A DNA stretch of 56,303 nt from Anaerolineae bacterium (lineage in GTDB: Bacteria > Chloroflexota > Anaerolineae > B4-G1 > DUEL01), in NCBI GenBank assembly GCA_034435295.1, contig DAOTYD010000239.1, positions 1 through 56,303 of the forward strand, written 5' to 3'. Shown piece after piece: positions 3,733 to 50,847 of this stretch. The notes beneath the pieces were generated by a model. That model saw only the letters and a program-made list of their open reading frames with translations, was not told where the DNA came from and ran no database searches. How positions within the stretch are numbered: position 1 is the stretch's first letter; each line of letters begins with the position of its first letter. A program made the translations under genes and the position numbers.

Positions 3733-3857
3733 GGGTGGGCAGATACGACGAGCGATACAAGGAGCGGGCCCCTCTACCCCGCGCCTCCACGAGGGTACTT
3801 GAGCCAGAGACCCGCTTCCTGCCGGCCTACCCACCGCCCCCTCTCAAGCGAGGGGAC

Positions 3858-4268
3858 TCACGAGGTTTCCCAAATCTTTTCCCCTCGCAAGATGCGCTCG
3901 ATCTGCCCGGGAAAACGGTCAGGATCGATCGGCTTGCCGATAAAACCGTCGAAACCAGCCTGACGCGCCTTTTCCATATTCGACTGACTGGCATCCGCCG
4001 TGACCGCAACGATGAGCTTGTCCTTGAAACGAGGGTCCCGGCGCAGCAACTCCAACGCCCTGTACCCATCCACCTCCGGCAGATTGATGTCCATCAGAAT
4101 CAGATCGACGTTGGGCAGCGACTCGACAAACTCGCGCACCTGCCAGCCGGATGCTTTCCACTCACAACGCTCAACGCCCAGGTAGGCCAGAAGACGCGCG
4201 ATGAGCAAAAAGTTATTCAGGTTGTCCTCAATGACCAGAACCGTGGCATCTTGCGGCTTGATGGCCAT
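3858..4268 (-). CDS. Stand-alone response-regulator receiver protein
   Basis: VLVIEDNLNN, LILMDINLPEVDG, IVAVTADA and GFIGKP. No output domain. Start trimmed to MAIKPQD. Confidence 0.85.
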   Translation of the reverse strand: MAIKPQDATVLVIEDNLNNFLLIARLLAYLGVERCEWKASGWQVREFVESLPNVDLILMDINLPEVDGYRALELLRRDPRFKDKLIVAVTADASQSNMEKARQAGFDGFIGKPIDPDRFPGQIERILRGEKIWETS

Positions 4269-4761: not shown

Positions 4762-5559
4762 CTACAGCGGTGAACCGAGATGCCGCGTCACCAGCTCCTG
4801 GCCCTCTGGCCCCAGAACCCACTGCATAAACGCGCGAGCTTCCCCTTGAGGCTCGCCAGGCGTGACCAGGAAGAGGACATAGGCCAGAGGCGCACCAGCG
4901 CGGCGCGCTGCGGCCGGAAGTACCCCATCGACCGCCACGACGCGCACATCGCCGTCGAGGCGGGAGAGGGGAACATAACCAATCGCACCTGGCGTCGACG
5001 CCACCGCCGCCAGCACGCCAGCGTCGTCGGCGACCGCCAGCGCCGTCAGCGTCACGTCGTACCCATCCATCACCTCCGCCTCGAACAGCGCCCGCACTCC
5101 CGAGCCGGCCTCGCGGCTGACCACCTGCACAGGCGTGCCGTCGGCCCATTCGCCGATGCGCCCGCGAAAGATCTCGCGCAACGTCTCGCGGTCGAGCCCT
5201 TCGACCGGCACGGCGGGATGGACGATCACGGCAATGGCATCGCTGGCAAAGGGGAGCAACCACAGGTCCACCTCCCCGCCTGGCCAGGCCAGCGCCGCCA
5301 GGTCAGCCGCGCCTGTGCGCAACCGCTCCTCGGCCACTGCGTCGTCGAACACCTCGACCTCGACCACAGCCCACGGATGCGCCGCCTGATAAGCCACCGC
5401 CAGCTCCTCCATCAGCGGCCCGCAGGCGTCCGTCGCCACCAAATGCAAGGTAGTGGGCTCTGATGTCGTCACAACCGGCGCAGGCGAGGTGCAGGCAGAC
5501 AAAAGCAGAGCGATGAACGACAGGCGACAGGCGAGGAGCGATAAACGACCCGCGCCCAC
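4762..5559 (-). CDS. PstS-family (PBP-like type 2) substrate-binding lipoprotein
   Basis: Lipobox LLSAC. SREAGSGVRALF and PGAIGYVPLS motifs typical of phosphate-binding PBP_like_2 proteins. Confidence 0.7.
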   Translation of the reverse strand: MGAGRLSLLACRLSFIALLLSACTSPAPVVTTSEPTTLHLVATDACGPLMEELAVAYQAAHPWAVVEVEVFDDAVAEERLRTGAADLAALAWPGGEVDLWLLPFASDAIAVIVHPAVPVEGLDRETLREIFRGRIGEWADGTPVQVVSREAGSGVRALFEAEVMDGYDVTLTALAVADDAGVLAAVASTPGAIGYVPLSRLDGDVRVVAVDGVLPAAARRAGAPLAYVLFLVTPGEPQGEARAFMQWVLGPEGQELVTRHLGSPL

Positions 5560-6384: not shown

Positions 6385-7398
6385 CTAGCAGATGCGCGGC
6401 AAGAGTTCGCCGAGGGGCATATCGACCACACGGCGTCCACTGATGGCGGTGCGCGCCAGCACCAGCCGCGGATGTTCCGCCGTGACCGTGCCGATACGCG
6501 CTGCCTCTCGACCGAGGGGATGAGCGCGCAACGCCGCCAGCGCCGCCTCGGCCTCTGTCGGCGGGACGAAGGCGACCAGCTTGCCTTCGTTGGCGACCGT
6601 CAGGGGGTCAAAGCCCAACATCTCACAGGCGGCGGCGACGGCGGGGCGCAGCGGCACGGCCGCCTCGTCGATCTCGATGCCTACTGCCGAGGAAGCGGCC
6701 AGTTCGTTCAACGCCGCCGCCAGCCCGCCGCGGGTGGGGTCGCGCAGGCAGTGCGTGTGCGGCGCGGCAGCCAGCAATTCCGCCACCAGGCCGTGCAGCG
6801 GCGCGCTGTCGGAAAGGAGCCCGGTCTCGAAGGCCAGCCCTTCGCGCTGGCTGAGCACGGCAATGCCGTGGTCGCCGACCGTGCCGCTGAGCAGCACCAC
6901 GTCGCCGGGCCGCGCCTGGTCCGGCCCCACGGCCACGTCTTCCGGCAGCAGGCCGACGCCAGCGGTGTTGATATAGATGCCATCGCCGTGGCCGCGCTCG
7001 ACGACTTTGGTATCGCCGGCAACGACCTGAACGCCTGCCGCACGCGCGGCATCGGCCATCGAACGGACCACCCGCTCCAGCACATCGATCTCCAGCCCCT
7101 CTTCCAGAATGAAGCCCGCCGTCAGCCAGAGCGGGCGCGCGCCGCTCATCGCCAGGTCGTTGACCGTGCCGTGGACGGCCAGCGAGCCGATGTCACCGCC
7201 GGGGAAAAAGAGCGGTCGGACGACAAACGAATCGGTCGAAATCGCCAGGCGCAGGTCTCGCGTTGCCAGGGACACCAACGTCGCGTCGGCCATCTGCCGC
7301 AGATACGGATTATCCAGCGGCCCGGCAAAGACCTGGCGGATCAACTCGGCCATCATCCGCCCCCCCGCCCCATGCGCCAACCGAATCACCCTCTCCAT
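6385..7398 (-). CDS. hypE: Hydrogenase maturation protein HypE
   Basis: N-terminal LAHGAGG, PurM-like fold, C-terminal PRIC. Confidence 0.9.
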   Translation of the reverse strand: MERVIRLAHGAGGRMMAELIRQVFAGPLDNPYLRQMADATLVSLATRDLRLAISTDSFVVRPLFFPGGDIGSLAVHGTVNDLAMSGARPLWLTAGFILEEGLEIDVLERVVRSMADAARAAGVQVVAGDTKVVERGHGDGIYINTAGVGLLPEDVAVGPDQARPGDVVLLSGTVGDHGIAVLSQREGLAFETGLLSDSAPLHGLVAELLAAAPHTHCLRDPTRGGLAAALNELAASSAVGIEIDEAAVPLRPAVAAACEMLGFDPLTVANEGKLVAFVPPTEAEAALAALRAHPLGREAARIGTVTAEHPRLVLARTAISGRRVVDMPLGELLPRIC

Positions 7399-7422
7399 AT
7401 CACCTGATCACCTGCCTGCCCG

Positions 7423-7472
7423 CAAACTCGCCCGCTTGCACACTTGCAAACTTGCAAACTTGCAAACTTGCC
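7423..7472. repeat. Octamer tandem repeat (NACTTGCA)x5 between hypD and hypE
   Basis: gcttgca cacttgca aacttgca aacttgca aacttgcc. The palindromic core TTGCAA recurs every 8 nt. Confidence 0.8.
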
Positions 7473-7474
7473 CC

Positions 7475-8581
7475 CTACCGTCCCCCATACTGATAATACG
7501 CCGCGCATGCCCCCTCCGCGCTGACCATGCACGGTCCCACCGGATTCTGCGGCGTACAGAGGCGGCCAAAGAGCGCACAATCGGGCGGCGAAAGCACACC
7601 GCGCAGGACGTCGCCGCAGCGACAGCCGGGCGGCTCGCGGGCCGGCGTCACCGTCACGGCAAAAGCCCGCGCCGCGTCGAAGCGAGCATAGGCCTGGCGC
7701 GGCCGCAGCCCACTGGCCGGAATGACGCCAAAACCGCGCCACTCGGCGTCGACTGCCTCAAAGACCTGCGCCATAGCCGCCTGCGCGGACGCGTTACCTG
7801 CCGGGCGGACCGTGCGGGCGTAGGCGTTGACCACATCGGCGCGCCCCGCTTCGACCATTTCCACCAGCGCCAGCACCGCCCGCAGCAGGTCCAGCGGCTC
7901 GAAACCGGCAATCGCGCAGGGGATGCCATACTCGTCGGGCAGAAAGCGCCAGGCGTCTGCGCCGATCACCGTCGTCACGTGGCCTGGGCCGATGATGCCG
8001 TCCAGAGCCACCTCGCCGGCGTCGAGAATGGCGCGCGTGGCCGGCGGGGTCAGCTTGTGCATACTGAACAGATACAAGTTCTCCAGCCCCTCAGCCTGCG
8101 CCGCCAGCAGCGCCGAGGCGCTCATCGGCGCTGTCGTCTCGAAACCAACGCCCAGAAAGACCACCCGGCGAGCCGGGTTCTGCCGCGCGATCTGCAAGGC
8201 GTCCAGGGGCGAATAGACCACGCGCACATCCGCGCCCTCCGCTTTGGCCTGAGCCAGTGAAACACCGCCGCTGCCAGGGACGCGAATCATGTCGCCAAAA
8301 GTGGTCAGGATCACCCCCTCTACCTTCGACAGCGCAATCGCCCAATCCAGCTCGGTCGCGGCGGTGACACAAACCGGGCAGCCCGGACCGGAGAGCAATT
8401 CGACAGTCGGCGGCAGGAGAGAGGGGATACCGTAACGCAAGATAGCATGCGTGTGCCCGCCGCAGAACTCCATGAGCCGCACAGGGCGAGCAGCGCAGCG
8501 ATGGATGGCTGAAGCTATAGCGCGGGCCGCGTCAGGGTCACGAAATGGCTCGGTAAATGATCGCAAAATGTAACGGATCAC
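7475..8581 (-). CDS. hypD: Hydrogenase maturation protein HypD
   Basis: CGGHTHAI, GPGCPVCV, GFETTAP, GPGHVTTVIG, and a C-terminal Cys cluster ...CMVSAEGACAAYY. Confidence 0.9.
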   Translation of the reverse strand: MIRYILRSFTEPFRDPDAARAIASAIHRCAARPVRLMEFCGGHTHAILRYGIPSLLPPTVELLSGPGCPVCVTAATELDWAIALSKVEGVILTTFGDMIRVPGSGGVSLAQAKAEGADVRVVYSPLDALQIARQNPARRVVFLGVGFETTAPMSASALLAAQAEGLENLYLFSMHKLTPPATRAILDAGEVALDGIIGPGHVTTVIGADAWRFLPDEYGIPCAIAGFEPLDLLRAVLALVEMVEAGRADVVNAYARTVRPAGNASAQAAMAQVFEAVDAEWRGFGVIPASGLRPRQAYARFDAARAFAVTVTPAREPPGCRCGDVLRGVLSPPDCALFGRLCTPQNPVGPCMVSAEGACAAYYQYGGR

Positions 8582-10719: not shown

Positions 10720-13098
10720 TTATCTGGCTTTTTCCAGCACCAGCCGCGCCGCTGCCTGGCGCTCCACTTGCTCGCGCGTCCACAGCATAGGGATGTACTC
10801 GCCCGCCAGCCACGGCGCGATCAGGTCATCATAGTGCGGGCTGCCCAGCCGCCCCGACTGCCCCGGCGCCAGCATCATCAGCGAGCGCGAGAGATCGCCC
10901 ATGTCGATGATCTGCCGGTACGACGGCGCCCACGCTTCGACCCCGTAGGGCGTTCGCGCCTTGAACGCCGTCTGGCAGACCGTGTCCGTGTCGCCGCCCA
11001 CAGGATAGGGCCCGCGGTTGAACACGCGGTCCAGCGGCGGCTGGATGCCCATCGCGTGGGGAAAGACAGCCTGGTGCAGCCGCCCCCAACGCCAGTCCTC
11101 CATCCGCGGCCCCAGCTTTTCGCTCAGCCAGCGCACTGCCTCGCCCAGGCTGCGCAGAAGCAGCGCCTGGCGCCCCCCAGCCTCTTGCAGCCAGGGCGAG
11201 TCCGCATCGCTGAGGATACGCAGCGCGGCCACCGTCGCGTGGCCGTAGAACTCGGTGCTGTGGTGCAGCAGCGGATGCGTGCCCTCGCCCATGAGCGCAT
11301 AGAAGAGATCCTCCCCCAGCGCCGATTCGAACAGATTGCGCACCAGGCGGTACAGCGTCACCTCGTACAGCGTCCCGCCGACGACCTCCGGGCCGAGGTC
11401 GCCGTCCCAGGAGCGCAGCGCCTCCAGCGCCGCCTGCACCGCCGGGTCGGGCGAAGACAGGCCGCGGAAATGCGCGGCAAACTCGAGGCCGGGGATGGAG
11501 TAGAAATCGCCGTGCAGAGCGCGGAAATCGGCCGGCGAGAGCACCCCTTTCTGCTCGAACACGTCGACCAGGCGGCGGGCGCGGTAGCCGTTCATCCACA
11601 GCGAACCCAGTTCGTAGGGGTAATCGTCCCCCACCAGGCGGTGGTTGCAGGAAATGACATAGCCCTGGGCAGGGTTGAGGGCATGCGGCATTGCCTCGAA
11701 GGGCACCTCGCCCACCCACTCGTACTCGCCGCTCCAGCCAGGCGAAGGCAGCATACCGCGCCCCTGCTGGCGCAGCGGCACCTTGCCCGTCACCCACAGG
11801 CCGATGTTGCCGGCGACGTCGGCATAGACGACGTTGAGCTGCGGCGCTTCGATCAGGCGCATCGCTTCCACAAAATCGTCCCAGCCGCTGGCGAGGTTCA
11901 ACTGGAACCAGCCCTGCACGATCGGCGCCGGCCGCAGGGCCATCGACTGCAGCGCCAGCCGCTGCTCCGGCGCGCCGATGACGTCGGAAACGACCGGGCC
12001 GTGGTGGGTGACGATCACCTCCTCGATATGCGGGCCGGCCTTGCCCTTGACGCCGATCTCTTCGCGCACGACCTGCGCCTGCCGCCACTCGCCGCGAAAC
12101 TCGTAGCGGCAGGGATCAGCCGGATCGAACTTTTCCACGTACAGGTCTTCGCAGTCGGTAAAGGCCAGCGTCATGCCCCAGGCGATGCGGGCGTTGTGGC
12201 CGACCAGGACCATAGGCACACCGGCGAGTGAGACGCCGCTGGCGTGGTAGAGCTCGCCCTGCGGCCCGGCGACGAGATGAACGGCGTACCAGATCGAGGG
12301 GAGCTGAAGCGCCAGGTGCATGTCGTTGCAAAGCATCGGCGCGCCCGTGCTCATGCGCGAGCCGGTGACGGCCCAGCCGTTGCTGCCCATCGCCCGGTTG
12401 AGGAACGGCCCGCGCAACGCCTCCAGCGCGCCGTCGACAGCAAGGCGGTTGAACTCGATGCCCTGCGGCAGGGTGAGCGGATTCTGCGGCGGGTAGTCGA
12501 TCTCCAGCTCGGCGGCGCGTGCGGGGCCGAGCCGCTCGATCAGCCGGGCGCGGACCAGTTCGCTGGCCCAGCCGTGCGAGAGGCTCCATGCCATCACCCG
12601 CGCCCAGGCCAGCGTGTCCAGCGGCGCCCACGGCTCGGGGCGGTGGCGCAGCAAGGCAAACTCGACCGGCAGGCGATCGCCCATCTCCTCCAGGCAGGCA
12701 TTGACCCCCGCCGCATACGCCTCCAGGTGGCCGCGCAACGACCCCAGCGCGACCAGGTCGGCCTCGGCCAGGCGGCGAAAGCCAAAGGTGCGGCTGAAGC
12801 GGTCTGTGTCGAGGGCCACCGGGCCGAAAAGCTCGGCCAGCCGTCCCATGGCAATGCGCCGGTTCAGCTCCATCTGCCACAGGCGATCCTGGGCGTGGAC
12901 AAACCCCTGGGCGAAGAAGAGGTCATCGAGGCCGGCAGCGTAGATGTGCGGCACTCCCCAGCGGTCGCGGACGATCTCGACGGGGGCGGACAGGCCCCCC
13001 AGACGCAGTGCACCATCGACCGGCAGCGCCCGACGGCGGTCGAGCGGCATCAGCACAGCGCGCAGCGCAGAACCAAGGGCTGAGTTGATAATGGACAT
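10720..13098 (-). CDS. Penicillin acylase-family Ntn hydrolase (peptidase S45)
   Basis: GVPHIYA, FAQGFVHAQDRLWQMEL, and the nucleophile region AMGSNGWAV. Confidence 0.85.
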   Translation of the reverse strand: MSIINSALGSALRAVLMPLDRRRALPVDGALRLGGLSAPVEIVRDRWGVPHIYAAGLDDLFFAQGFVHAQDRLWQMELNRRIAMGRLAELFGPVALDTDRFSRTFGFRRLAEADLVALGSLRGHLEAYAAGVNACLEEMGDRLPVEFALLRHRPEPWAPLDTLAWARVMAWSLSHGWASELVRARLIERLGPARAAELEIDYPPQNPLTLPQGIEFNRLAVDGALEALRGPFLNRAMGSNGWAVTGSRMSTGAPMLCNDMHLALQLPSIWYAVHLVAGPQGELYHASGVSLAGVPMVLVGHNARIAWGMTLAFTDCEDLYVEKFDPADPCRYEFRGEWRQAQVVREEIGVKGKAGPHIEEVIVTHHGPVVSDVIGAPEQRLALQSMALRPAPIVQGWFQLNLASGWDDFVEAMRLIEAPQLNVVYADVAGNIGLWVTGKVPLRQQGRGMLPSPGWSGEYEWVGEVPFEAMPHALNPAQGYVISCNHRLVGDDYPYELGSLWMNGYRARRLVDVFEQKGVLSPADFRALHGDFYSIPGLEFAAHFRGLSSPDPAVQAALEALRSWDGDLGPEVVGGTLYEVTLYRLVRNLFESALGEDLFYALMGEGTHPLLHHSTEFYGHATVAALRILSDADSPWLQEAGGRQALLLRSLGEAVRWLSEKLGPRMEDWRWGRLHQAVFPHAMGIQPPLDRVFNRGPYPVGGDTDTVCQTAFKARTPYGVEAWAPSYRQIIDMGDLSRSLMMLAPGQSGRLGSPHYDDLIAPWLAGEYIPMLWTREQVERQAAARLVLEKAR

Positions 13099-13110
13099 GG
13101 TTGCCTCCTC

Positions 13111-13133
13111 GCTTATCGCTTATCGCTTATCGC
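13111..13133. repeat. Heptamer tandem repeat (GCTTATC)x3
   Basis: gcttatcgcttatcgcttatcgc lies in the 5' UTR of the acylase gene. It belongs to the GCGATAA/GCGTATC family seen at 5 other loci. Confidence 0.8.
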
Positions 13134-13159
13134 AATTCGTGCCCAATTCGCGGCCTTCA

Positions 13160-13175: not shown

Positions 13176-13781
13176 ATGAAAAAACCACAGCGCACCCATA
13201 TCTTTATCCTCATCGGCATCGCCGCCGTCGGCCTGGTTGCCGGCGTGATGGCGCTCAACGGCTATGGCCCCTTCCTCGACAGCCTGATCCGCGCCTGCGG
13301 CCTGTTGGGTTACCTGGCCGTCTTTCTCTCCTGCCTCTCCTCCGCCTTTTTGCGCCAGATGACGCGCGCTTTTGGACGGCCTTTCGTGCAGGTGCACCAC
13401 GTCTTTGCCGTGTCAGGGCTGGTTCTGCTCACCCTGCATGCCCTTGGCGTGGCCTGGAACGAGGGCAGTATAGCCGTCTTTGCGCCCCGCTTCGACTCGC
13501 TGCGCCTCTTCCTGGCGCTGGGCGGACGTCCGGCCCTGTGGCTGCTCGCCATCGGCTCGCTGGCGGCACTGCTGCGCAGCAGCCTGCGCGGGAGCTGGCG
13601 GCTGATCCACCGCCTGAATTACGTCGCCTTCCTGCTCGCCACCGCACACGGGCTCTTGATCGGCAGCGACCTGGGCCATGTAGTCGCCCGCGTGGTCGTG
13701 ATCGCCATGGCAGTGGGCCTGACCGCGGCGATCGGCTGGAAAAAAGCCCGGCAAGCGCGCCAGAAGGCCAGGCGTTCGTAG
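13176..13781 (+). CDS. Ferric-reductase-like (YedZ/MsrQ-type) haem-binding transmembrane protein
   Basis: Six hydrophobic helices. Conserved His pairs (VHHVFAVSG..LHALG; WRLIHRLNYVAFLLATAHG). Start trimmed to MKKPQRT. Confidence 0.6.
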   Translation: MKKPQRTHIFILIGIAAVGLVAGVMALNGYGPFLDSLIRACGLLGYLAVFLSCLSSAFLRQMTRAFGRPFVQVHHVFAVSGLVLLTLHALGVAWNEGSIAVFAPRFDSLRLFLALGGRPALWLLAIGSLAALLRSSLRGSWRLIHRLNYVAFLLATAHGLLIGSDLGHVVARVVVIAMAVGLTAAIGWKKARQARQKARRS

Positions 13782-13790
13782 CTCTTTTGA

Positions 13791-14669
13791 TCAGGTGCTG
13801 CGCCGCCCGACCAGGCCAGCCCCCACAGCCAGCTCCTGCGTCTCGCGGGTGATGGCCTGGCGACGGGCAGTCTGCACGGCCATCATCATCTCCTCGATCA
13901 GCCGCTCTGCGTTTTTGGTGGCGCCGTCCATCAACTGGTAGCGCATGGACTGCTCGGCAGCAGCCGACTCCAGCAACAGGTTGTAGAAGCGCACAGCAGC
14001 CCACTGGCCGACGACCTGGACATAGAGGCGCAGGGGGTCGGTCTCGACAATCGGCGGCGGCCAACTCACCTCGACCTGCCGCCTCATCTCCAGGCGGGGC
14101 GGGATCAGACGGATTATCTGCGGCGTAAAGAGGGCAGGGCCGCGATAGTGGTTGTAGATCACATCGACCGTGTCCAGCTCGTGCGCCTCATAGCGGGCCA
14201 GCCAGCGACGGGCCAGATCGAAGGCCAGCGACGGCGACGGCAGCGCCGTGACCGAGAGCGGCGCGCTCCACGCCGGGCGCCTGCCGCGCTGGCTCAGCAG
14301 GCGGACCGCGCGGCTGCCCAGCGCCAGCAGTTCCAGCCTCTCAACGGGCCGGGCGGCCAATTCCTCCAACGCCAGCTCAACAACGGCCTCGTTGAAGCGA
14401 CCGCAGAGGCCGCGCTCGCTGCCCACCACCACAACCACCTCCCGCGCCGGCTCGGGCACAGGGCGCTGCCGGGGCGCTGGCGGCACATCCAGGGCCGGCA
14501 GCAGCAACGGCAGGATGCTCAGCAGGCGTTCGCTGTAGCGGCGCGCGCCGCCAAGCTGACGCAGGGCCGCCCGCCAACTGCCCAGCGAAATCGTGCGCAG
14601 CGCGCTCAGAATAGGCTCTACAGCGCGGATGTTCCCCAGCCGCTCCTGCACGCGCTCCAGCTCTTCCAT
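13791..14669 (-). CDS. atpG: N-type ATPase gamma subunit
   Basis: MEELERVQERLGNIRAVEPILSALRTISL... and a C-terminal ITRETQELAVGA helix typical of F1 gamma. Confidence 0.85.
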   Translation of the reverse strand: MEELERVQERLGNIRAVEPILSALRTISLGSWRAALRQLGGARRYSERLLSILPLLLPALDVPPAPRQRPVPEPAREVVVVVGSERGLCGRFNEAVVELALEELAARPVERLELLALGSRAVRLLSQRGRRPAWSAPLSVTALPSPSLAFDLARRWLARYEAHELDTVDVIYNHYRGPALFTPQIIRLIPPRLEMRRQVEVSWPPPIVETDPLRLYVQVVGQWAAVRFYNLLLESAAAEQSMRYQLMDGATKNAERLIEEMMMAVQTARRQAITRETQELAVGAGLVGRRST

Positions 14670-14671
14670 CG

Positions 14672-15004
14672 CTAGTACATTTCCACCCGTTCCATCGACC
14701 AGATAAAGACTACCGCTCCGCCGATCTGGGCGCTGACCTCCATCCCAGGATAGACCAGCGGCGGGAACGCTGCCTCATCTCCCCCACCTGCTTCGATACG
14801 AACCTGCGAGTGGCAATTCTGACGGATAATTCCCAGCACCCGCTCGACATCCTGCTTTTTCACCGCGATAAAGAGCATGTACTGGGCCTGACGCAACATG
14901 CCGCCGCGGCTCTCTGTAAACGTCGCCGTAAAGCCCGCAGAGGTCAGGGCATCCAGAACGCGGTCTGCCTCATCCCGCGGGATGACAGCCAAGATCATTT
15001 TCAC
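14672..15004 (-). CDS. PII-like cyclic-di-AMP receptor family protein (DarA/PstA, DUF970)
   Basis: 110 aa, MKMILAVIPRDEADRVLDALTSAGFTATFTESRGGMLRQ...IGGAVVFIWSMERVEMY. It is colinear with B. subtilis DarA as I recall it. GTG start. Its stop lies 2 nt before the atpG start. Confidence 0.75.
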   Translation of the reverse strand: MKMILAVIPRDEADRVLDALTSAGFTATFTESRGGMLRQAQYMLFIAVKKQDVERVLGIIRQNCHSQVRIEAGGGDEAAFPPLVYPGMEVSAQIGGAVVFIWSMERVEMY

Positions 15005-15063
15005 AGTACTTTCCCCCTGATGAGCATCCTCGCCCCATCCTCACCCGCCTTCGGCGGCCTGCC

Positions 15064-15101
15064 CCCTCTCCGCTTGCGGGGAGAGGGCAGCGGCGCCGCT
15101 G
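15064..15101. repeat. REP-like hairpins in the atpA/darA-like spacer
   Basis: ccctctcc..ggagaggg stem (15064-15087) followed by the 14-nt palindrome cagcggcgccgctg (15088-15101). A related hairpin lies at 45391-45418. Confidence 0.6.
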
Positions 15102-15141
15102 CCGGGGAAGGGGTAGAAGGCAAGCTGTTTTCATAACAGGT

Positions 15142-16803
15142 TCAGTGATGGAGCCATTTCTGATGAAACCCGGCAATGGATTCGAGCAACGAAGCGCGCA
15201 GTTCTGCGGACAACTCGCAGGTCCGGTCGAGCTGATGGCATATACTGGGGTGACTGCCCTCGATGTGGGCGCGCAGTTCCCGCTCGTAACGCGGCACATC
15301 CTCCACCGCCACGCTGTCGAGAAAGCCCTCCGTCACCGCCAACAGGATGACGACCTGCTGATCGAGCGAGAGCGGCTGATGGGCGGGCTGGCTCAGCGCG
15401 GCCTGTAGCCGCTGACCGCGTCGAATCTGACGCCGTGTGGCCTCATCCACCTCAGTGCCAAAGCGAGCGAAAGCGGCCACCTCTTCGTACTGGGCCAGTT
15501 CCAGGCGCAGGCGACCCGCCACCGCGCGCATGGCTGGCGTCTGCGCCGCCCCGCCGACGCGCGAGACCGAGCGGCCAATGTCCACCGCCGGCCTGATTCC
15601 CCGGTTGAAGAGCGTCGCGTTGAGCACGATCTGGCCGTCAGTAATCGAGATGAGGTTGGTGGGGATGTAGGCTGCCACGTTGCCGCGCTGGGTCTCGACA
15701 ATGGGCAGCGCCGTCAACGACCCTCCACCGGCAGCCTCGTTCAGCTTGCAGGCGCGCTCCAGGAGGCGGGCGTGCAGGTAAAAGATATCACCGGGATAGG
15801 CCTCGCGGCCCGGCGGCCGGCGCAGCAGCAGGCTCAGCTCGCGATAGGCGTCAGCGTGCCTGGTCAGATCGTCATAGATGACCAGCACATCCCGCCCCTC
15901 GCGGGTCAGATACTCGGCCATCGTGCAACCAGCGTAGGGCGCCAGGTAGCGCAGGGCCGGCGGATCGTTGGGGCTGGCCATGACGACGATCGTGTGCGCC
16001 AGCGCGCCGCTACGGCGCAGCGTCTCCACCACCGCCAGCACGGTCGATTTTTTCTGGCCGATGGCGACATAGACACAAACCACGCCACTGTCACGCTGGT
16101 TGATGATGGCGTCGACCGCCAGCGTCGTCTTGCCGCTCTGCCGGTCGCCCAGGATCAGCTCGCGCTGGCCGCGGCCGATGGGCACCAGCGCGTCGATGAC
16201 CTTGGTGCCGGTGTGTAGCGGCTGCTTCACCGGCTCCCGGCTGACGATGGGCGGCGCATCCTGCTCCAGGTACTCGAACAACGTCGCCTGGATCGGCCCA
16301 CCGCCGTCCAGCGGCTGACCCAGCGGGTCAACCACGCGCCCCAGCAGCGAATGGCCCACCGGCACGCGCAGGCGCTCGCCCGTAGCTGTCACCAGGTCGC
16401 CGCCCTGGATGTTCTCCTCACTGCCGAGCAAGATCACATCGACATGGGCGTGGTCGAGGTTGAGCACCATCCCCTGCACGCCGGTGGGAAAGGTCACCAG
16501 TTCGTCCGTGCGAGCGCGCGGCAGCCCCGACAGCGTGGCCACGCCCTCGCCGATGTGCTGCACCGTGCCCACATCCTGGAAGCGGACCTGCGGCTCGATC
16601 TGTTCGACCTGACGGAGCAACTCGTCTACCAGGCGACCGACGCCAAACCTGGCCTGGGGCAGGTCGGGCAAAGCAGCAATGGTACGGCTCAGCAAGAGGA
16701 CCAGGTCAGCCGGCGAGAGGCCGTCAAGCTGCTCCTCCGCTACCTGCTCGCGCAGCTCGCGCAACAGCAAGGCCACATCAGGCCGCAGCGAACGCTCATT
16801 CAT
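15142..16803 (-). CDS. atpA: N-type ATPase alpha subunit
   Basis: Walker A GDRQSGKT. An N-terminal extension of about 45 aa precedes the beta-barrel (VGTVQHIGEGVATLSGL). Confidence 0.9.
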   Translation of the reverse strand: MNERSLRPDVALLLRELREQVAEEQLDGLSPADLVLLLSRTIAALPDLPQARFGVGRLVDELLRQVEQIEPQVRFQDVGTVQHIGEGVATLSGLPRARTDELVTFPTGVQGMVLNLDHAHVDVILLGSEENIQGGDLVTATGERLRVPVGHSLLGRVVDPLGQPLDGGGPIQATLFEYLEQDAPPIVSREPVKQPLHTGTKVIDALVPIGRGQRELILGDRQSGKTTLAVDAIINQRDSGVVCVYVAIGQKKSTVLAVVETLRRSGALAHTIVVMASPNDPPALRYLAPYAGCTMAEYLTREGRDVLVIYDDLTRHADAYRELSLLLRRPPGREAYPGDIFYLHARLLERACKLNEAAGGGSLTALPIVETQRGNVAAYIPTNLISITDGQIVLNATLFNRGIRPAVDIGRSVSRVGGAAQTPAMRAVAGRLRLELAQYEEVAAFARFGTEVDEATRRQIRRGQRLQAALSQPAHQPLSLDQQVVILLAVTEGFLDSVAVEDVPRYERELRAHIEGSHPSICHQLDRTCELSAELRASLLESIAGFHQKWLHH

Positions 16804-17578
16804 GGCCCAATCGTTCCCTGAGCGCCTTGAGCACGCTCTCGCGCAGCTCTGCCATCTGCCCGCCGATCGAGTTGTCGATGATCATATCGCCCAGACGGAC
16901 GCGGATGCCGGCCACCAGCGAGGGGTCGATCTTGAGCTCCAGGTTGACATGATGGTCGGCCAGAGCGGTCAAGGTCCGCGCGAGCTGGCCCTGCTGCTCT
17001 GGCGAGAGCGGCCGGACAGTGGTCACGTGAGCAACAGGAGTGCGCTCGCCCAGCGAGCGTCGGAACGCCTCGACGCGCTGGATCTCTGTGCGGCCCAGTT
17101 CCCAGACACGCTCATTGAGCTGCTCGACCAGGGTTTGGTGCAGGGAGGGAGAGGCCGTGCGCATCACCAGTTGACCGCTGACTGCCAGCACCGCGTCCAC
17201 CAATTGCTGGTAGGAATCTTCGAGCGCCTGCTGCTGGATGCGGTAGGCATCAGTGCGGGCTTCGACCAGGATACGCTCGACCTCGGCGCGGGCGGCACGC
17301 AGCAGTTCGTCATGCTCCAACTCTGCTTTCTCGTGCGCACGGGTCAGGATGGCATCTGCCTCCTGTTCCACGTTGGCCAGGCGGGTCTCCAGCTCTTCGC
17401 GGAGACGGGCAGCCTCCTGACGCTCTCGCTCGATATCTCGCATCAGCCGCTCTTTCTCTTCGGCCCGTTCTTTCACCCTCTTCGTTACCGGGCGGAAGAG
17501 AAAGCGGTAGAGCAAAAAGCTCAAGACGAGAAAATTGAAAATCTCGAACAGTATGGTGGCGATGTCCAGATCCAGCAT
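16796..17578 (-). CDS. atpF: N-type ATPase b subunit with a delta/OSCP-like C-terminal region
   Basis: N-terminal TM helix and long charged coiled coil. The C-terminus KIDPSLVAGIRVRLGDMIIDNSIGG resembles the delta C-terminus. Start trimmed to MLDLDIA. Confidence 0.7.
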   Translation of the reverse strand: MLDLDIATILFEIFNFLVLSFLLYRFLFRPVTKRVKERAEEKERLMRDIERERQEAARLREELETRLANVEQEADAILTRAHEKAELEHDELLRAARAEVERILVEARTDAYRIQQQALEDSYQQLVDAVLAVSGQLVMRTASPSLHQTLVEQLNERVWELGRTEIQRVEAFRRSLGERTPVAHVTTVRPLSPEQQGQLARTLTALADHHVNLELKIDPSLVAGIRVRLGDMIIDNSIGGQMAELRESVLKALRERLGHE

Positions 17579-17588
17579 ACGCCAACCT

Positions 17589-17861
17589 CTAGAAAAAACG
17601 GTCAAGCAGCGGGTTGGCAAAGATGAGGATCAGGACAATCAGCAGCACATAGATCGCCGTTGACTCGAGCAGAGCCATCGAAATGAGCAGCGTCGTGCGC
17701 AGGTTGCCCGCGACTTCGGGCTGGCGTGTCATGCCTTCCAGCGCCCGCTCCACCGCCCGCCCTTCGGCCAGGGCCGGCATAATGGTGCCCAAAACGATTC
17801 CAAAGCCGGCAACGATGATCGTTACCACGGTGACCAGAGTGCCCGGATCCATTTCCATCAT
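17589..17861 (-). CDS. atpE: N-type ATPase c subunit
   Basis: Hairpin with an RQPE loop. Helix 2 LLESTAIY. Glu in helix 1 (PALAEGRA). Confidence 0.85.
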   Translation of the reverse strand: MMEMDPGTLVTVVTIIVAGFGIVLGTIMPALAEGRAVERALEGMTRQPEVAGNLRTTLLISMALLESTAIYVLLIVLILIFANPLLDRFF

Positions 17862-17897: not shown

Positions 17898-18539
17898 CTA
17901 GCCTGACTCGATCGCCCCGAGGCCGGCGGCGATATAGACAGAAGCCAGAGCGGTGAAAATGTAGGCCTGCAGCAGGCCGGTAAAGATGCTAAAGCCGATC
18001 AACGGCAACGGCACCAGAAACGGCAAAAGGACGAAAATAACCGCAACGATCAGCTCGGTGCTGATGATGTTGCCAAACAGGCGCAGGGTGAGCGACAGGG
18101 TGCGGCTCAACTGGCCGATGATCTCCAGCGGCAGGACATAGATCGGCGAGGCCAATTCCTTCAAATAGCCCTTCAGCCCTCTAGAGCGGATGCCGAAATA
18201 GTGGACGGATAAAAAGACCGTCAGCGCCAGCGCCAGGGGCGTGTTGATGTCGCGGGTGGGAGAAATGAGAAAGGGAACAAGGCCGATGAGATTGGCCACA
18301 GCGATAAAGATCGCCAGCGAGCCGAGAAAAGGCAGATAGTCAACAGCAGGGCGGCCCATGACGCTGGAGATCAGATCGTTCAAAAAGTCGGTCAGCATCT
18401 CCAGCGCCATCGGCTGGCGGCGGCCCAGGATCAGCGCCAGGGCCAGGATGATCGCCATCATCACCCACGTCGAGACGACCGTGTCGCGCACCGGAATGCC
18501 AAAGAGGGTGAAAACTACCCGGGGGAAAACCTCTTCCAT
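17898..18539 (-). CDS. atpB: N-type ATPase a subunit
   Basis: LSRTLSLTLRLFGNI (essential Arg). Start trimmed to MEEVFPR, with AGGAGG upstream. Confidence 0.8.
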   Translation of the reverse strand: MEEVFPRVVFTLFGIPVRDTVVSTWVMMAIILALALILGRRQPMALEMLTDFLNDLISSVMGRPAVDYLPFLGSLAIFIAVANLIGLVPFLISPTRDINTPLALALTVFLSVHYFGIRSRGLKGYLKELASPIYVLPLEIIGQLSRTLSLTLRLFGNIISTELIVAVIFVLLPFLVPLPLIGFSIFTGLLQAYIFTALASVYIAAGLGAIESG

Positions 18540-18802
18540 GCTTCCTCCTGCGTGCCGAACCAGAGCACAGCCAGCGAGCGGGCCAGCCACAGGCCGCCAA
18601 AGGCGCCCAACCCCGGCAGGATGCCCTGCCGCAGCGCCAGGCTCAACAGCAACACGGCCAGGCTCCAGCGCAGGGCAGCCCCACCCCACACCATTGCCAG
18701 CCCAGCCCCTGCCGACTCTGGCCGCAGCCGCCCCACCGTCCAGGCCAGCGACAAGGCGTTGAGCGCGCCCAAGAGCAGGCCAGCCAGCAACCAGCCCATC
18801 AT
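18515..18802 (-). CDS. atpR: AtpR-like small membrane protein of N-ATPase operons
   Basis: 95 aa, about three hydrophobic segments, and Arg in the first helix (WTVGRLR). It sits between the atpQ-like gene and atpB. ATGA overlap with the upstream stop. Confidence 0.55.
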   Translation of the reverse strand: MMGWLLAGLLLGALNALSLAWTVGRLRPESAGAGLAMVWGGAALRWSLAVLLLSLALRQGILPGLGAFGGLWLARSLAVLWFGTQEEAWKRFSPG

Positions 18803-19057
18803 GGCTCGTCCTCCGCTTCCTGCTCCTGCGCCGCCTTCTGGTCGCGCCGCGCCATGCGCTGGATGAAGCGGCCAACGGTATAGAAACCGGTCGCAATGCC
18901 CGCCATCAGCAGACCGATGGTGAAAATATGGCCCGTCCCCAGCCAGCGGTCGAGGTAATAGCCTGCCAGCACGCCGGCAAAGATCGGCAGGGCCAGTTCC
19001 CAGCCGAGCGACATGGCCGCCAGCCCTTCGCGCAGCAAATAGCTCCACGTGCCGGCC

Positions 19058-19077
<20 letters not shown>
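18799..19077 (-). CDS. atpQ: AtpQ (AtpI/AtpZ-like) membrane protein of N-ATPase operons
   Basis: 92 aa, two TM helices (LGWELALPIFAGVLAGYYLD; IFTIGLLMAGIATGFY). It sits right after atpC. Confidence 0.6.
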
Positions 19078-20870
<1,793 letters not shown>

Positions 20871-20983: not shown

Positions 20984-21012
20984 AGTATAGCCGATGACAG
21001 AGGAAAAGTCAA
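20984..21012 (-). promoter_or_regulatory. Candidate sigma70 promoter of the N-ATPase operon
   Basis: On the minus strand, TTGACT (21012-21007), a 17-nt spacer, then TATACT (20989-20984). It lies about 150 nt upstream of atpD. Confidence 0.4.
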
Positions 21013-25159: not shown

Positions 25160-25636
25160 GTGACCATCGACGAAACACTCGACCGCATCCGTGCCCGGCT
25201 CAGTCTGGAAGCGGAGACAGAGTACGAACTGCTGGAGGAAATCCGCGCCCATCTGGAAGACGCGGTCGAAGAAGCGCGCGCACGCGGCCTGGACGAAGAA
25301 GCGGCGCTGGCGCAGGCGGCAGCCCGCTTCGGCCTGGAGGAGTCGGCCCAGGAGCTGCAGGCCACCCATGTTGGCTGGGGCACACTGGAAGGCATCGCGG
25401 CGGCGGCCCTGCCGGTCCTCTTTGCGCTGGTCCTGCGCTGGTTGATCTTTGCGCCGGACGGCACGGCCATCGGCTGGCGCGAACTGTTGAATCGCCCCGC
25501 TCTATGGGCCGTCGCCGCGCTGGCCCTCCTGCTGCCCATCCGTCACTTCCCTCGCCGCCGCTACGCCCTCCTCGCCTGGGTCGTCTTTTGGGGCCTCTCC
25601 ATCCTCTTCATCACCTTCCCCGCTCTCCGCTGGTAA
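25160..25636 (+). CDS. Membrane protein with a DUF1700/HAAS-like N-terminal helix (PadR partner)
   Basis: GTG start. The N-terminal soluble helical region EYELLEEIRAHLEDAVEEARARGLDEEAA...FG is followed by 3 TM helices. Confidence 0.5.
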   Translation: MTIDETLDRIRARLSLEAETEYELLEEIRAHLEDAVEEARARGLDEEAALAQAAARFGLEESAQELQATHVGWGTLEGIAAAALPVLFALVLRWLIFAPDGTAIGWRELLNRPALWAVAALALLLPIRHFPRRRYALLAWVVFWGLSILFITFPALRW

Positions 25637-25652
25637 CCCCTCCCCACCTGCA

Positions 25653-25676
25653 AACTTGCATACTTGCACACTTGCA
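25653..25676. repeat. Octamer tandem repeat (NACTTGCA)x3
   Basis: aacttgca tacttgca cacttgca. Same family as 7423-7472. The last unit supplies the -35 of the ridA promoter. Confidence 0.7.
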
Positions 25677-25699
25677 TCCTGGCCACCTTGCACTACAAT
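25672..25699 (+). promoter_or_regulatory. Candidate promoter of ridA
   Basis: TTGCAT (25672-25677), a 16-nt spacer, then TACAAT (25694-25699). It lies 27 nt before the ATG at 25727. Confidence 0.4.
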
Positions 25700-29530: not shown

Positions 29531-29845
29531 ACGTATCTCCTCGACTCGGCTGCCGCGCCGCAACAAAAACCGGCCTCGTTGACGCTGCGAGTCGCCGCGC
29601 ACCAGACGCCGGGTTCAGGTTGTTTTCTTGCTGGTACGAACCTGCCTGGCCAGACCTCCTCCAACAGGTCGGCGCCCACAACAAGCACCTTCCGACACAA
29701 CCCTGGTCACGCGGTGCGGCATTGCCAGATTTCGCACTATTTTATCACGTCGTGGAGGAAAGTCAAATACAAAACTGTGCCCTCTCCCAAGCGGAACCAT
29801 TTACCCTGCCCGAACGTCTTAAACCATGAGTGGAGGAAAACGGAT

Positions 29846-43271: not shown

Positions 43272-43907
43272 TCAACCGGCAAACTCGACCACGACCTCTT
43301 TGACATCCCAGCGCGAGCCGATCTTTTCGACAATCTCCTCGCGGATGTTGTTGGCGAACTGGTGATCAGGCGGCAGGTCCATCACGACACGCACGACGCC
43401 GTCGGCAATCTCGATCTCCTTGACCAGTTTGGTGCGCACCACGTCCAGGCCGACAACGGGGTTCATGACGTGCTTGAGCCGCCTGCGCACGACTTCCTCG
43501 GTGGTCGGTGTGCGTTCTTTGACCAGGCCATGGCGCTCCTCGTAATTCTCGATCGCCGCGCGCAGGCCGTCCACTGCCAGCACCGAGCAGTGGGTCTTGA
43601 GCGCGGGCAGTCCGCCCAGCGCCTCCGCCGCCTGCTGCCAGGTGATCTCTTTGGCCTCGGCCAGCGTCTTGCCCTTGGCCAGCTCGGTGATGATCGAACC
43701 GGTGGCGATGTTGGACGCACAGCCGTAGGACTCGAACTTGATGTCGGTGATGCGCTGGGTCGCCTCGTCCACCTTGAGATAGACGGCAACCATGTCGCCG
43801 CAGGCGGGGCTTCCCTCCACCGATTTGGCATCCGCATCCTCGATCCGCCCCACGTTGCGCGGGTTGCGGAAGTGTTCCATCACGATCTCACTGTATGGCA
43901 ATGGCAT
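43272..43907 (-). CDS. IscU/NifU-N Fe-S scaffold fused to a DUF59-like C-terminal domain
   Basis: HFRNPRNVG...GSPACGDMV...ESYGCASNIA...THCSVLA, then a VMNPVVGLDVVRTKLVKEIEI... DUF59-like region lacking the usual Cys. Confidence 0.85.
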   Translation of the reverse strand: MPLPYSEIVMEHFRNPRNVGRIEDADAKSVEGSPACGDMVAVYLKVDEATQRITDIKFESYGCASNIATGSIITELAKGKTLAEAKEITWQQAAEALGGLPALKTHCSVLAVDGLRAAIENYEERHGLVKERTPTTEEVVRRRLKHVMNPVVGLDVVRTKLVKEIEIADGVVRVVMDLPPDHQFANNIREEIVEKIGSRWDVKEVVVEFAG

Positions 43908-43923
43908 AGTGTCCTCCTTACTC

Positions 43924-44035
43924 GCGTATCGCGTATCGCTTATCGCTTATCGCGTATCGCTTATCGCCTGATGTGATATGCGATTAGCGATATGCAATAA
44001 GCGATTAGCGATCAGCGATCAGCGATCAGCGATAG
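43924..44035. repeat. Inverted pair of heptamer arrays: (GCGTATC/GCTTATC)x6, spacer, (GCGATNA)x8
   Basis: Left array 43924-43967 and right array 43980-44035, in opposite orientation. The right array contains the last 5 codons and the stop of nifS. Confidence 0.8.
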
Positions 44036-45418: not shown

Positions 45419-45475
45419 AATCCGCCGTAGGGGAATGGGGCGAAGATACAGCGCAGCGGCAGAGACGTGCGCCGC

Positions 45476-49057: not shown

Positions 49058-50827
<1,770 letters not shown>

Positions 50828-50847
50828 CAACACGAACGGCACGAATT

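Follow-up and report, generated by a model that had tools for sequence, protein, structure and literature searches.

Why does a gene for a small PII-like protein lie between the alpha- and gamma-subunit genes of a rotary ATPase in an Anaerolineae genome, and does its product act on the enzyme alongside which it is encoded? The locus lies on contig DAOTYD010000239.1, the full 56,303 nt of which are referred to below as the window. The original prediction had read the gene as a DarA/PstA-type receptor for c-di-AMP, inserted into an N-type ATPase operon and possibly coupling c-di-AMP levels to an ion-exporting enzyme. The place of this gene in a conserved ATPase operon hints that an ion-pumping ATPase is controlled or assembled in a manner not yet described. 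The evidence was considered at the level of the protein, the operon, the related loci and the ligand cleft.

Family and fold of the DarA-like protein

14672..15004, minus strand: darA-like gene; PII-like product of 110 aa (CdAMP_rec family, ATPase-linked subfamily; T-loop TATFTESRGGMLRQAQ)

The predicted 110-aa reading frame between atpA and atpG proved to be a real gene, matching Pfam CdAMP_rec (PF06153) with 62.7 bits (cut-off 27; E = 4e-17) and having over 220 homologues (E <= 1e-3), all those listed carrying PF06153. The closest relative, present in JGI and Logan metagenomes, is 95% identical. Translation starts at a GTG codon and gives the N-terminus MKMILAV (family consensus MKMVMAV), and the TAG stop at 14674-14672 lies 2 nt from the ATG of atpG at 14669, a spacing with which the proposed translational coupling of the two genes is plausible. 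The protein is colinear end to end with DarA (YaaQ) of B. subtilis and PstA of S. aureus and L. monocytogenes, all about 110 aa long, with residues 1-106 aligning to positions 1-105 of the 109 in the PF06153 profile, and the C-terminal GGA-VF motif that had been pointed out is present as G95-G96-A97-V-V-F100.

Assignment to classical PII proteins (GlnB/GlnK) was rejected on the basis of the P-II model (PF00543), which at 23.7 bits stayed under its cut-off of 25 and aligned to residues 1-66 alone, and of the Walker-A-like B-loop motif TGxxGDGKI of classical PII, which is absent from the protein sequence. Consistent with this, searches of PDB sequences matched the PstA/DarA structures (LmPstA, SaPstA and DarA) at E = 3e-11 to 1e-7, while GlnK/GlnB entries gave weak matches (E = 0.24-0.9). 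An AlphaFold2 monomer model (pLDDT 85, pTM 0.74, less certain in the T-loop and in the B-loop, residues 71-90) shows the predicted ferredoxin-like PII fold shared with DarA and PstA, arranged beta-alpha-beta-beta-alpha-beta with a short T-loop and a long B-loop. Its best Foldseek matches were 4rww, 4rle, 3m05 and 4d3h (E = 6e-11 to 1e-7), with GlnK/PII structures next in rank; the PII-NrtBCD structure 8wm7 was also among the matches. Orthology to DarA itself was ruled out, given a score of about 61 bits (61.3) against the DarA equivalog model NF058593, far under its cut-off of 140; identity to DarA and PstA is only 25-29%. These results place the protein in the PII superfamily, as a divergent offshoot of its DarA/PstA branch (Pfam CdAMP_rec). 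The crystal structures of PstA and DarA, as homologues, suggest that it probably forms a homotrimer, with a ligand cleft at each of the three subunit interfaces.

The atp operon and its class

The genes surrounding the darA-like gene, all on the minus strand, are given below in the order of transcription. Several gene boundaries follow the homologous calls in the related genome L083.

20984..21012, minus strand: candidate sigma-70-like promoter upstream of atpD (consensus scan, 10/12 matches; weak evidence)
19419..20834, minus strand: atpD, beta subunit, first gene of the operon (Pfam and NCBIfam matches)
19058..19426, minus strand: atpC, epsilon subunit, 122 aa (PF02823; 122-aa homologue call in L083)
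18799..19077, minus strand: atpQ, ATPase_gene1 (PF09527, 60.7 bits, above the cut-off)
18515..18802, minus strand: AtpR/AtpI-like small membrane protein, about 95 aa (gene call after L083)
17898..18539, minus strand: atpB, a subunit (PF00119, 150 bits; 213-aa length after the L083 homologue)
17589..17861, minus strand: atpE, c subunit (Pfam match; aligned to c-ring structures)
16796..17578, minus strand: atpF, b subunit with a fused C-terminal segment of delta/OSCP (PF00430 and PF00213; length after L083)
15142..16803, minus strand: atpA, alpha subunit, 553 aa, with an N-terminal extension of ~50 aa (Pfam and NCBIfam; model match from about residue 58)
13791..14669, minus strand: atpG, gamma subunit (Pfam ATP-synt, 144 bits)
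13747..13764, minus strand: terminator-like hairpin and T-run just 3' of atpG (consensus scan; weak evidence)

The gene order atpD-C-Q-R-B-E-F-A-G was confirmed by Pfam for each ORF and recurs in related loci, with the darA-like gene added between atpA and atpG. N-ATPases were described as having the operon atpDCQRBEFAG, a c subunit with a helix-1 Glu and an ESTxxY motif, and, as tell-tale subunit, AtpR, with 3 TM helices and a conserved Arg (Dibrova, Galperin, Mulkidjanian 2010, PMC2881411). Most of these features are shared by the operon in the window. Its c subunit reads PALAEGRA where that of Spirulina reads GPGLGQGQA, placing a Glu of helix 1 at the Gln position, and the segment LLESTAIY corresponds to ESTxxY; AtpQ is present; a separate delta gene is absent, and the OSCP C-terminal segment is instead carried by the b subunit, where PF00213 is matched over profile positions 102-171 and the best NCBIfam model is alt_F1F0_F0_B. 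The operon differs from the described N-ATPases in the additional gene between alpha and gamma, in the ~50-aa N-terminal extension of alpha (the offset of the alpha P-loop is ~221 in this ATPase clade, compared to 168 in canonical operons), and in the weak match to AtpR, the AtpR/AtpI-like ORF scoring 18.3 bits against AtpR (cut-off 26) and 21.7 bits against ATP-synt_I (cut-off 25.1); the related genome L166 has a single I-like gene instead. It also differs in its NCBIfam scores: the alternate F1F0 models fall under their cut-offs (beta 606/752, alpha 662/750, gamma 80/282, c 86/131, a 150/302 and b 110/225 bits), while the canonical models for atpD (715 bits, cut-off 463) and atpA (687 bits, cut-off 484) are passed. 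Judged by gene order, by AtpQ, by the fusion of b and delta and by the motif of its c subunit, the operon is of the predicted N-type; judged by the NCBIfam cut-offs, it is not.

In the original description (Dibrova et al. 2010, PMC2881411), an N-ATPase always accompanies another rotary ATPase, of F- or A-type. ProAD, whose operational definition beta-epsilon-X-X-a-c-(b-delta)-alpha-gamma the operon fits, lists N-ATPases in Chloroflexota, with N and A types together in some members and the N-type alone in the genus T78; among the scanned ORFs of the 56-kb window, no second rotary ATPase was seen. Since the N-type enzyme may be the sole rotary ATPase in some Chloroflexota (T78), the ATPase linked to the darA-like gene may synthesize ATP. 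Given also the failure of the alternate models, its description as ion-exporting is not established.

Retention of the gene in the operon and origin of the spacer

Conservation of this arrangement was surveyed in two ways. First, a profile of the darA-like subfamily retrieved 80 genomic loci, mostly from Anaerolineae MAGs and spanning Anaerolineales, Thermoflexales and Ardenticatenaceae. At all 80, down to 42% identity, the gene lies within an atpD-C-(Q/R)-B-E-F-A-X-G operon (X denoting the darA-like gene), usually overlapping the atpA stop by 4 nt (ATGA); the median gap is -4 nt to atpA (at most 40 nt in 71/77) and 9 nt to atpG. No fusion of its domain to an ATPase subunit was found among the profile matches. 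The second survey, of metagenomes, was seeded with AtpG and is thus independent of the darA-like gene, which was present in 31 of the 35 N-like operons and in none of the 39 canonical F-type (alpha-gamma-beta) loci. In the N-like operons it is directly upstream of atpG in 26, beside a duplicated alpha gene in 3, after atpG in 2 and absent in 4 (L087, L108, L109 and L112). That the gene changes place within the operon yet remains there argues for a functional linkage.

These surveys show that the darA-like gene is fixed in the N-type-like ATPase operon of the class Anaerolineae (Chloroflexota), and they reverse the notion of an insertion into a canonical operon, as its presence is the norm for this clade. 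Through the ATGA stop/start overlap, its translation normally keeps pace with that of alpha, and the gene lies a few nucleotides ahead of the one for gamma. It is not essential to the ATPase machine, since the N-ATPases of other phyla and the four related operons named above do without it, and its conserved position shows co-expression rather than physical interaction. The N-terminal extension of alpha was considered as a correlate of the gene and rejected, the extension being found in the same four operons. Among individual loci, L129 has a DarA with the canonical motif (GGFL..N) located after atpG. Among the profile matches, P0205 has the look of a chimera, and those with two domains consist of canonical-type DarA in tandem.

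The window itself departs from the usual overlap, the TGA stop of atpA at 15144-15142 being followed by a spacer.

15005..15141, minus strand: spacer of 137 nt between atpA and the darA-like gene, containing a dispersed, palindromic repeat of ~90 nt at about 15030-15120

Repeat search and alignment delimited a palindromic element of ~75-90 nt, with a second, inverted copy of 80% identity at 45366-45440, so that the earlier description of the hairpins as REP-like is a fair one. Folding of the spacer gave -71 kcal/mol across 156 nt (z = -2.5). It was considered as an intrinsic terminator and rejected, as no T-run follows the hairpin and the consensus scan finds no site there; a search of the operon region against Rfam revealed neither a riboswitch nor any further RNA family, the one match, to a miRNA (E = 0.39), being due to chance. 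The same spacer occurs in the 95%-identical relative L083 and is absent from most other species. A palindromic repeat was inserted between atpA and the darA-like gene in this window, thereby breaking the overlap of the two genes and leaving the latter with its own ribosome-binding site, a Shine-Dalgarno-like GGGGGA run 7 nt ahead of the GTG start.

This arrangement might be taken to mean that the darA-like gene is a recent insertion, a hitch-hiker or a decaying pseudogene at a site of repeat-mediated insertion, and the repeat-filled spacer upstream of the gene, as well as its GC3 of 0.70, somewhat under the 0.81-0.85 of its neighbors, would fit such a history. However, the gene occupies the same place at 80/80 loci, mostly without any spacer, its frame is intact, strongly conserved and yields a confident fold model, and the repeat itself is what was inserted. 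We therefore regard this reading as scarcely credible and as refuted by the comparative data. The spacer is not the insertion scar that it had been thought to be; the gene is ancient in the operon, and the repeat is a lineage-specific insertion.

The ligand cleft and a possible role at the ATPase

Residues of the cleft were counted over 121 sequences of the darA-like subfamily. Part of the scaffold of the c-di-AMP site is kept, with T28, G35, L37, G95 and A97 each conserved in 121/121 and F100 (F99 of the L. monocytogenes protein) in 120/121, and DarA and PstA share T28, the G34-G35-x-L37 turn of the T-loop, the G-G-A kink of the B-loop and F100. Seven of the eight invariant columns (T28, G35, L37, Q39, G95, A97 and W102) fall in the T-loop/beta3, B-loop or beta4 of the cleft. 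The T-loop, ESRGGMLRQAQ, is nearly invariant, and R33, R38, Q39 and W102 are invariant or nearly so, in distinction to DarA and PstA. Since the best-conserved residues are those of the cleft and the T-loop, the pattern is one typical of a sensor.

The side chains that contact the ligand present a different picture. In PstA, F36 stacks on the second adenine of c-di-AMP, N41 contacts the ribose, R26 makes a cation-pi contact, and T97 and H108 contact the phosphate; in LmPstA, F36A and N41A weaken c-di-AMP binding, while R26 is dispensable (PMC4475381). In the darA-like subfamily, position 36, where F gives way to M, V or I, is M in 109/121 sequences and never aromatic, N41 is replaced by Q in 114/121, R26 by T in 103/121, T97 by V98 in 99/121, and H108 by E in 84/121, this last equivalence resting on our own alignment of the C terminus. 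In contrast, canonical and tandem members of the CdAMP_rec family retain the GGFL..N motif. The replacement of contacting side chains in an otherwise kept cleft suggests a ligand change within the family. Because F36, N41, R26 and H108 are systematically replaced, binding of c-di-AMP is not a given, and c-di-AMP may not be the ligand. The assignment as a DarA/PstA-type c-di-AMP receptor therefore stands as to family and fold but not as to the DarA equivalog or the four contacting side chains, and this possible change bears on the trust that can be placed in an automatic annotation of the subfamily as 'cyclic-di-AMP receptor'. A tblastn search for a diadenylate cyclase, with a CdaA DAC-domain query, gave no match in the window and 165 loci (1.6 Mb), a result that is uninformative, as these flanks cover <1% of each genome.

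Proteins of the PII family are known to regulate partners with which they share an operon. We consider it probable, if only just, and the best explanation of the data taken jointly, that the DarA-like protein senses a ligand and, as a trimer, serves the ATPase of its operon as an accessory or regulatory partner. The trimer would bind a small adenine-containing ligand in its remodeled cleft, candidates being c-di-AMP, held in a different pose, and mononucleotides (ADP, ATP or AMP, for example). Depending on this ligand, it might dock on the ATPase through the nearly invariant T-loop, most plausibly on the three-fold symmetric alpha3beta3 head or on gamma, and would thereby gate either ATP hydrolysis with ion pumping or ATP synthesis, just as GlnK gates AmtB, PII gates NrtBCD and SbtB gates SbtA, each a partner from the same operon. 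As in those systems, a small PII-fold protein, here a trimer by homology, is encoded beside and co-translated with the membrane complex that it would control, and no surface element is better conserved than the T-loop. The present case differs in that a rotary F/N-type ATPase would be the partner and in that the T-loop is short, as in PstA, rather than of the long GlnK type.

ATP hydrolysis by F-type enzymes is inhibited by the C-terminal domain of epsilon, mitochondrial IF1, alphaproteobacterial zeta and cyanobacterial AtpTheta, some of which respond to nucleotides. The DarA-like protein is possibly a functional analogue that restrains wasteful hydrolysis, although the folds of these inhibitors are unrelated to its own and none is a PII-type trimer. 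In the epsilon subunit of the window, the beta-sandwich domain alone was detected by Pfam; the C-terminal inhibitory domain may therefore be reduced, leaving room for another regulator. To our knowledge, no PII-type regulator of a rotary F- or N-type ATPase is known. As the original prediction had supposed, a link between a DarA, PstA or PII-like protein and ATP synthase or an N-ATPase was not found in the open-access literature searched, although such an absence is not proof.

A more specific version, which we offer tentatively and with considerable doubt, is that the protein is an unrecognized accessory subunit of Anaerolineae rotary ATPases, a PII-fold trimer made about 1:1 with alpha and seated on the F1 head, where a nucleotide signal, be it c-di-AMP or the adenylate state read by the remodeled cleft, would be coupled directly to rotary catalysis or to Na+/H+ pumping. 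If this is true, no PII-type regulator of a rotary ATPase would precede it, and one branch of the DarA/PstA family would gain a defined partner. The gene bears on the targets of DarA/PstA-type PII-like proteins, on the purpose and control of N-type ATPases, and on the regulation of rotary ATPases beyond epsilon, IF1, zeta and AtpTheta, and the fixation of a PII-fold protein in the ATPase operon of an entire, environmentally abundant class provides a concrete and testable hypothesis as to its partner.

It is also conceivable that the protein is an ordinary receptor for c-di-AMP or another nucleotide, with targets elsewhere, such as transporters, transcription factors or metabolic enzymes, and that its place in the operon ties its expression only. 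The partners reported for PstA and DarA are unrelated to ATPases, as in the GlnR-GlnA-PstA complex of S. aureus (2026 preprint, PMC13484208) and the action of PstA in thymineless death in Listeria (PMC12802241), and position in an operon does not prove binding; canonical pstA, in Firmicutes, lies in an operon with tmk without a demonstrated direct interaction with Tmk (PMC4475381), compared to the atp operon of Chloroflexota for the gene studied here. Several observations nevertheless render this account unlikely, namely the deep, near-universal retention of the gene at the alpha/gamma junction, with its stop/start overlap, in three groups of Chloroflexota, its persistence in the operon even after relocation, its absence from 39/39 sampled canonical F-type loci, and the linkage to atp genes of 80/80 retrieved loci of the subfamily.

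Finally, the protein could be a structural or assembly subunit rather than a sensor, the trimer capping the alpha3beta3 crown or chaperoning F1 assembly by binding the three extended alpha N-termini and replacing the missing N-terminal domain of delta/OSCP, with one trimer per enzyme. The overlap with atpA would imply synthesis at about 1:1 with alpha, three copies making one trimer per F1; the three-fold symmetry of a trimer matches that of alpha3beta3; the b subunit carries the C-terminal part of OSCP alone; and the extension of the alpha N-terminus is specific to this clade. Against this, canonical N-ATPases share the b-delta architecture without the protein, the alpha extension also occurs in the four operons lacking the gene, and conservation is concentrated at the ligand cleft and T-loop in a sensor-like manner. 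We accordingly hold a purely structural function to be decidedly improbable, and the pattern of conservation is that expected of a protein that senses a ligand.

Position of X in the ATPase operon

The 110-aa darA-like ORF, here called X, lies between the genes for the alpha and gamma subunits of a rotary ATPase. On re-reading of the sequence, the coordinates originally predicted for X, atpA, and atpG at their junctions all proved correct: X begins with a GTG at 15004, 7 nt downstream of a GGGGGA run, and ends with a TAG at 14674-14672, while the atpA TGA (15144-15142) is 137 nt upstream of X and the atpG ATG is 2 nt past its stop. The N-terminus, MKMILAV, agrees with the family consensus MKMVMAV, indicating that this GTG is the right start. 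Pfam analysis of every ORF in the cluster gave the order atpD-atpC-atpQ-AtpR/AtpI-like-atpB-atpE-atpF-atpA-X-atpG.

Features of the ATPase operon, assigned with Pfam
19419-20834, minus: atpD (beta)
19058-19426, minus: atpC (epsilon), 122 aa, beta-sandwich domain alone detected
between atpC and the AtpR/AtpI-like gene, minus: atpQ (PF09527)
between atpQ and atpB, minus: AtpR/AtpI-like small membrane protein
between the AtpR/AtpI-like gene and atpE, minus: atpB (a)
between atpB and atpF, minus: atpE (c)
16796-17578, minus: atpF (b with OSCP C-terminal segment)
15142-16803, minus: atpA (alpha)
14672-15004, minus: X, 110 aa
ATG at 14669, after X, minus: atpG (gamma)

A consensus scan detected a promoter-like site upstream of atpD and a terminator-like hairpin directly 3' of atpG, and no terminator-like hairpin between atpA and X. 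The G+C content of the window is 65.7%, and GC3 is 0.70 for X, somewhat below the 0.81-0.85 of its neighbours.

A subfamily profile, searched against a one-genome-per-species collection, returned 80 loci, mostly from Anaerolineae MAGs, including Anaerolineales, Thermoflexales, Ardenticatenaceae, Brevefilum, and Pelolinea. X was on the same strand within the atpD-C-..-B-E-F-A-X-G cluster in 80/80 of these. In most, the atpA stop and X start share a 4-nt ATGA overlap (median gap -4 nt; ≤40 nt in 71/77), and X and atpG are separated by a median of 9 nt; these tight, often overlapping junctions point to translational coupling, as had been proposed. Because this survey was seeded on X itself, a second employed an AtpG profile on metagenome contigs, counting operons of the X-carrying type with enough upstream sequence. 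X was immediately upstream of atpG in 26 operons, beside a duplicated alpha (A1-X-A2-G) in 3, and present as a copy downstream of atpG in 2, and 4 operons were without X. It occurred in 0/39 loci whose gamma is distantly related (24-30% identity) and whose order, where the flanks reveal it, is the canonical alpha-gamma-beta. X shifts place inside the operon yet remains part of it. Both surveys contradict the original view of X as an insertion into a canonical operon; it is a fixed part of this one. The association with the ATPase, the core of the original prediction, is strengthened, since it is class-wide and not a one-off.

Several relatives show variant arrangements. A PII-like gene follows atpG in a few related operons, among them L129 (4839-5207) and L121 (4851-5231), and the L129 copy carries the canonical DarA motif GGFLRQSN (GVTRIDSSGGFLRQSN). 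Locus L068 has two PII-like genes (3740-4111 and 5044-5385), of which one lies between alpha and gamma and the other past gamma. Two alpha genes, arranged F-A1-X-A2-G or F-A1-A2-X-G, are found in others (L110:124-3954; L005:1-2681; L021; L034:1253-4753; L088; L089). Comparison of the copies in L110 and L034 and the complete copy of L005 showed an unbroken P-loop GDRQTGKT and 76-80% identity between alphas of the same operon; such pairs may form a heteromeric alpha ring. In L166:4599-11192, on a 3.68-Mb ENA contig, epsilon and a are separated by one small AtpI-like gene in place of AtpQ and AtpR, and X follows atpA with zero intergenic gap. A full operon with X filed under a 'Methanosarcinales archaeon' MAG (L038; 6-kb contig, 0.26x coverage) is probably a Chloroflexota binning contaminant, rather than an archaeal copy.

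Family, fold and ligand cleft of X

X passes the Pfam CdAMP_rec model (PF06153) over its full length with 62.7 bits (cut-off 27), whereas the classical P-II model gave 23.7 bits, just under its cut-off of 25. The best-matching solved structures were L. monocytogenes PstA (E = 2.7e-11), S. aureus PstA, and B. subtilis DarA/YaaQ, with GlnK and GlnB matching solely at E > 0.2. AlphaFold2, given 121 homologues, produced a model (pLDDT 85) of beta-alpha-beta-beta-alpha-beta topology whose confidence drops in the T-loop (mean pLDDT 74 over residues 31-40) and is poorest in the B-loop (about 53 over residues 71-90), and Foldseek ranked PstA and DarA top, followed by GlnK and PII. The predicted DarA/PstA membership is borne out, and by profile and model X is a member of the CdAMP_rec family with the PII-like fold of that family. 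An NCBIfam DarA equivalog score of 61 bits against a cut-off of 140 rules X out as a DarA orthologue. Public annotation labels its relatives 'cyclic-di-AMP receptor' or 'YaaQ'.

The canonical pstA/darA gene accompanies tmk in Firmicutes and has been described as absent from Gram-negative lineages (PMC4475381), in contrast with X in the atp operon of Anaerolineae. Its known roles are in control of glutamine synthesis (PMC13484208) and in thymineless death (PMC12802241). We found no open-access paper that places a DarA/PstA protein, or any other member of the PII family, in a rotary ATPase operon or describes one acting on such an enzyme; what is new is the conserved association of an already known fold and family with an ATPase operon.

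In the L. monocytogenes PstA (LmPstA) complex, c-di-AMP is contacted by the backbone of G26-A27, G35-F36-L37, G47, and G94 and by the side chains of T28, N41, T97, F99, H108, and F36; R26 is an additional contact in S. aureus PstA and DarA, and LmPstA F36A and N41A bind more weakly (PMC4475381). Among 121 ATPase-linked subfamily members, T28, G35, L37, G95, and A97 do not vary, and 120/121 have F100. Backbone-contact position 47 is A, not G, in 106/121, and position 36 is M in 109/121, with V, I, L, or T in the remainder and an aromatic residue in none. Q41 (114/121), T26 (103/121), V98 (99/121), and E108 (84/121, its equivalence to H108 resting on a C-terminal alignment made here) are also common. 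Much of the contact scaffold is retained, but the side chains at 26, 36, 41, 98, and 108 differ systematically. Given that 7/8 invariant columns fall in cleft elements (T28, G35, L37, Q39, G95, A97, W102) while contact side chains have changed, the cleft is under strong selection but remodelled, which is compatible with a changed ligand pose or with another adenine nucleotide as ligand. A shift of the ligand site in this subfamily is probable. Of the proposed c-di-AMP receptor, the family, fold, and much of the cleft scaffold stand, and the assumption about the ligand is weakened.

Searching 1.84 billion cluster representatives with a profile separated an ATPase-linked motif, T-A-T-F-x-E-S-R-G-G-[MVI]-L-R-Q-[AS]-Q, with F36 in a few members, from a canonical one, [R/x]-x-T-[KR]-x-x-[ST]-x-G-G-F-L-[RK]-x-G-N, which includes tandem two-domain forms. 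Many of the matches P0154-P0220 are 210-260-aa proteins made up of two DarA-like domains in tandem, both halves often carrying canonical GGFL..N.

The ATPase and possible roles for X

Dibrova et al. define N-ATPases by gene order, AtpQ, AtpR, lack of a separate delta, and a c-subunit Glu with ESTxxY (PMC2881411). Here the gene order and AtpQ are present, there is no separate delta, and the c subunit has a rare pairing of a helix-1 Glu with ESTxxY. The AtpR match is below the Pfam threshold, and every NCBIfam alternate F1F0 model scores under its cut-off, whereas atpA and atpD pass their canonical models. In the passages searched, the ProAD work uses the operational definition beta-epsilon-X-X-a-c-(b-delta)-alpha-gamma, records Chloroflexota N-ATPases beside A-type enzymes and genus T78 with the N-type as sole rotary ATPase, and makes no mention of a gene between alpha and gamma (PMC11738941). 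On these grounds 'N-type-like' is a fair label; of the predicted N-type ion-exporting ATPase, ion export is not established. Alpha has a clade-specific N-terminal extension of ~50 aa (P-loop offset ~221, against 168 for the canonical subunit), the b subunit of the clade retains the C-terminal third of delta/OSCP only, and epsilon in the clade is 122 aa with its beta-sandwich domain alone detected.

PII-family proteins act on partners from their own operon, as in GlnK-AmtB, PII-NrtBCD, and SbtB-SbtA, and X would do likewise. We consider it somewhat probable that X is a trimeric adenine-nucleotide-binding regulator of the ATPase: it would trimerize, bind its nucleotide, and dock on the enzyme through the nearly invariant T-loop. 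The atpA overlap would favour roughly 1:1 synthesis of X and alpha, and this, with the truncated delta, speaks for X as a structural component or assembly factor capping the alpha3beta3 crown; however, the alpha extension is found in X-less operons too, and we regard a cap as distinctly unlikely. X could also be a receptor merely co-expressed with the ATPase, with targets elsewhere, a possible if unlikely arrangement that has precedent in the known PstA partners GlnR and GlnA (PMC13484208).

Repeats at the atpA/X junction and elsewhere

The 137-nt atpA/X spacer, originally read as the scar of an X insertion, is lineage-specific and recurs, at 143 nt, in L083, a relative with 95% identity. It is largely a ~90-nt G+C-rich palindromic element at about 15030-15120 (core GCCCTCTCCCCGCAAGCGGAGAGGGGGC) that looks like a dispersed REP/MITE-like repeat, with a second, inverted copy at 45366-45440, likewise intergenic and 80% identical. 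What entered the junction was the repeat, not gene X, and recent insertion of X is refuted by the comparative data and extremely improbable.

Other repeats were also noted. Intergenic 7-nt tandem arrays (TATCGCG/TATCGCT and complement) occur on both strands at 5496-5548, 13095-13139, 43893-44046, 50827-50886, and 56035-56300, reaching ~35 units at the window end, and tandem 8-nt repeats (CTTGCAAA/CTTGCACA) lie at 7395-7480 and 25615-25692. A 1242-aa ORF at 28646-32374, with three PA14 domains, Ig-like and cadherin-like domains, and 378-nt internal direct repeats at 30794-31794, probably encodes a surface adhesin or glycan-binding protein.
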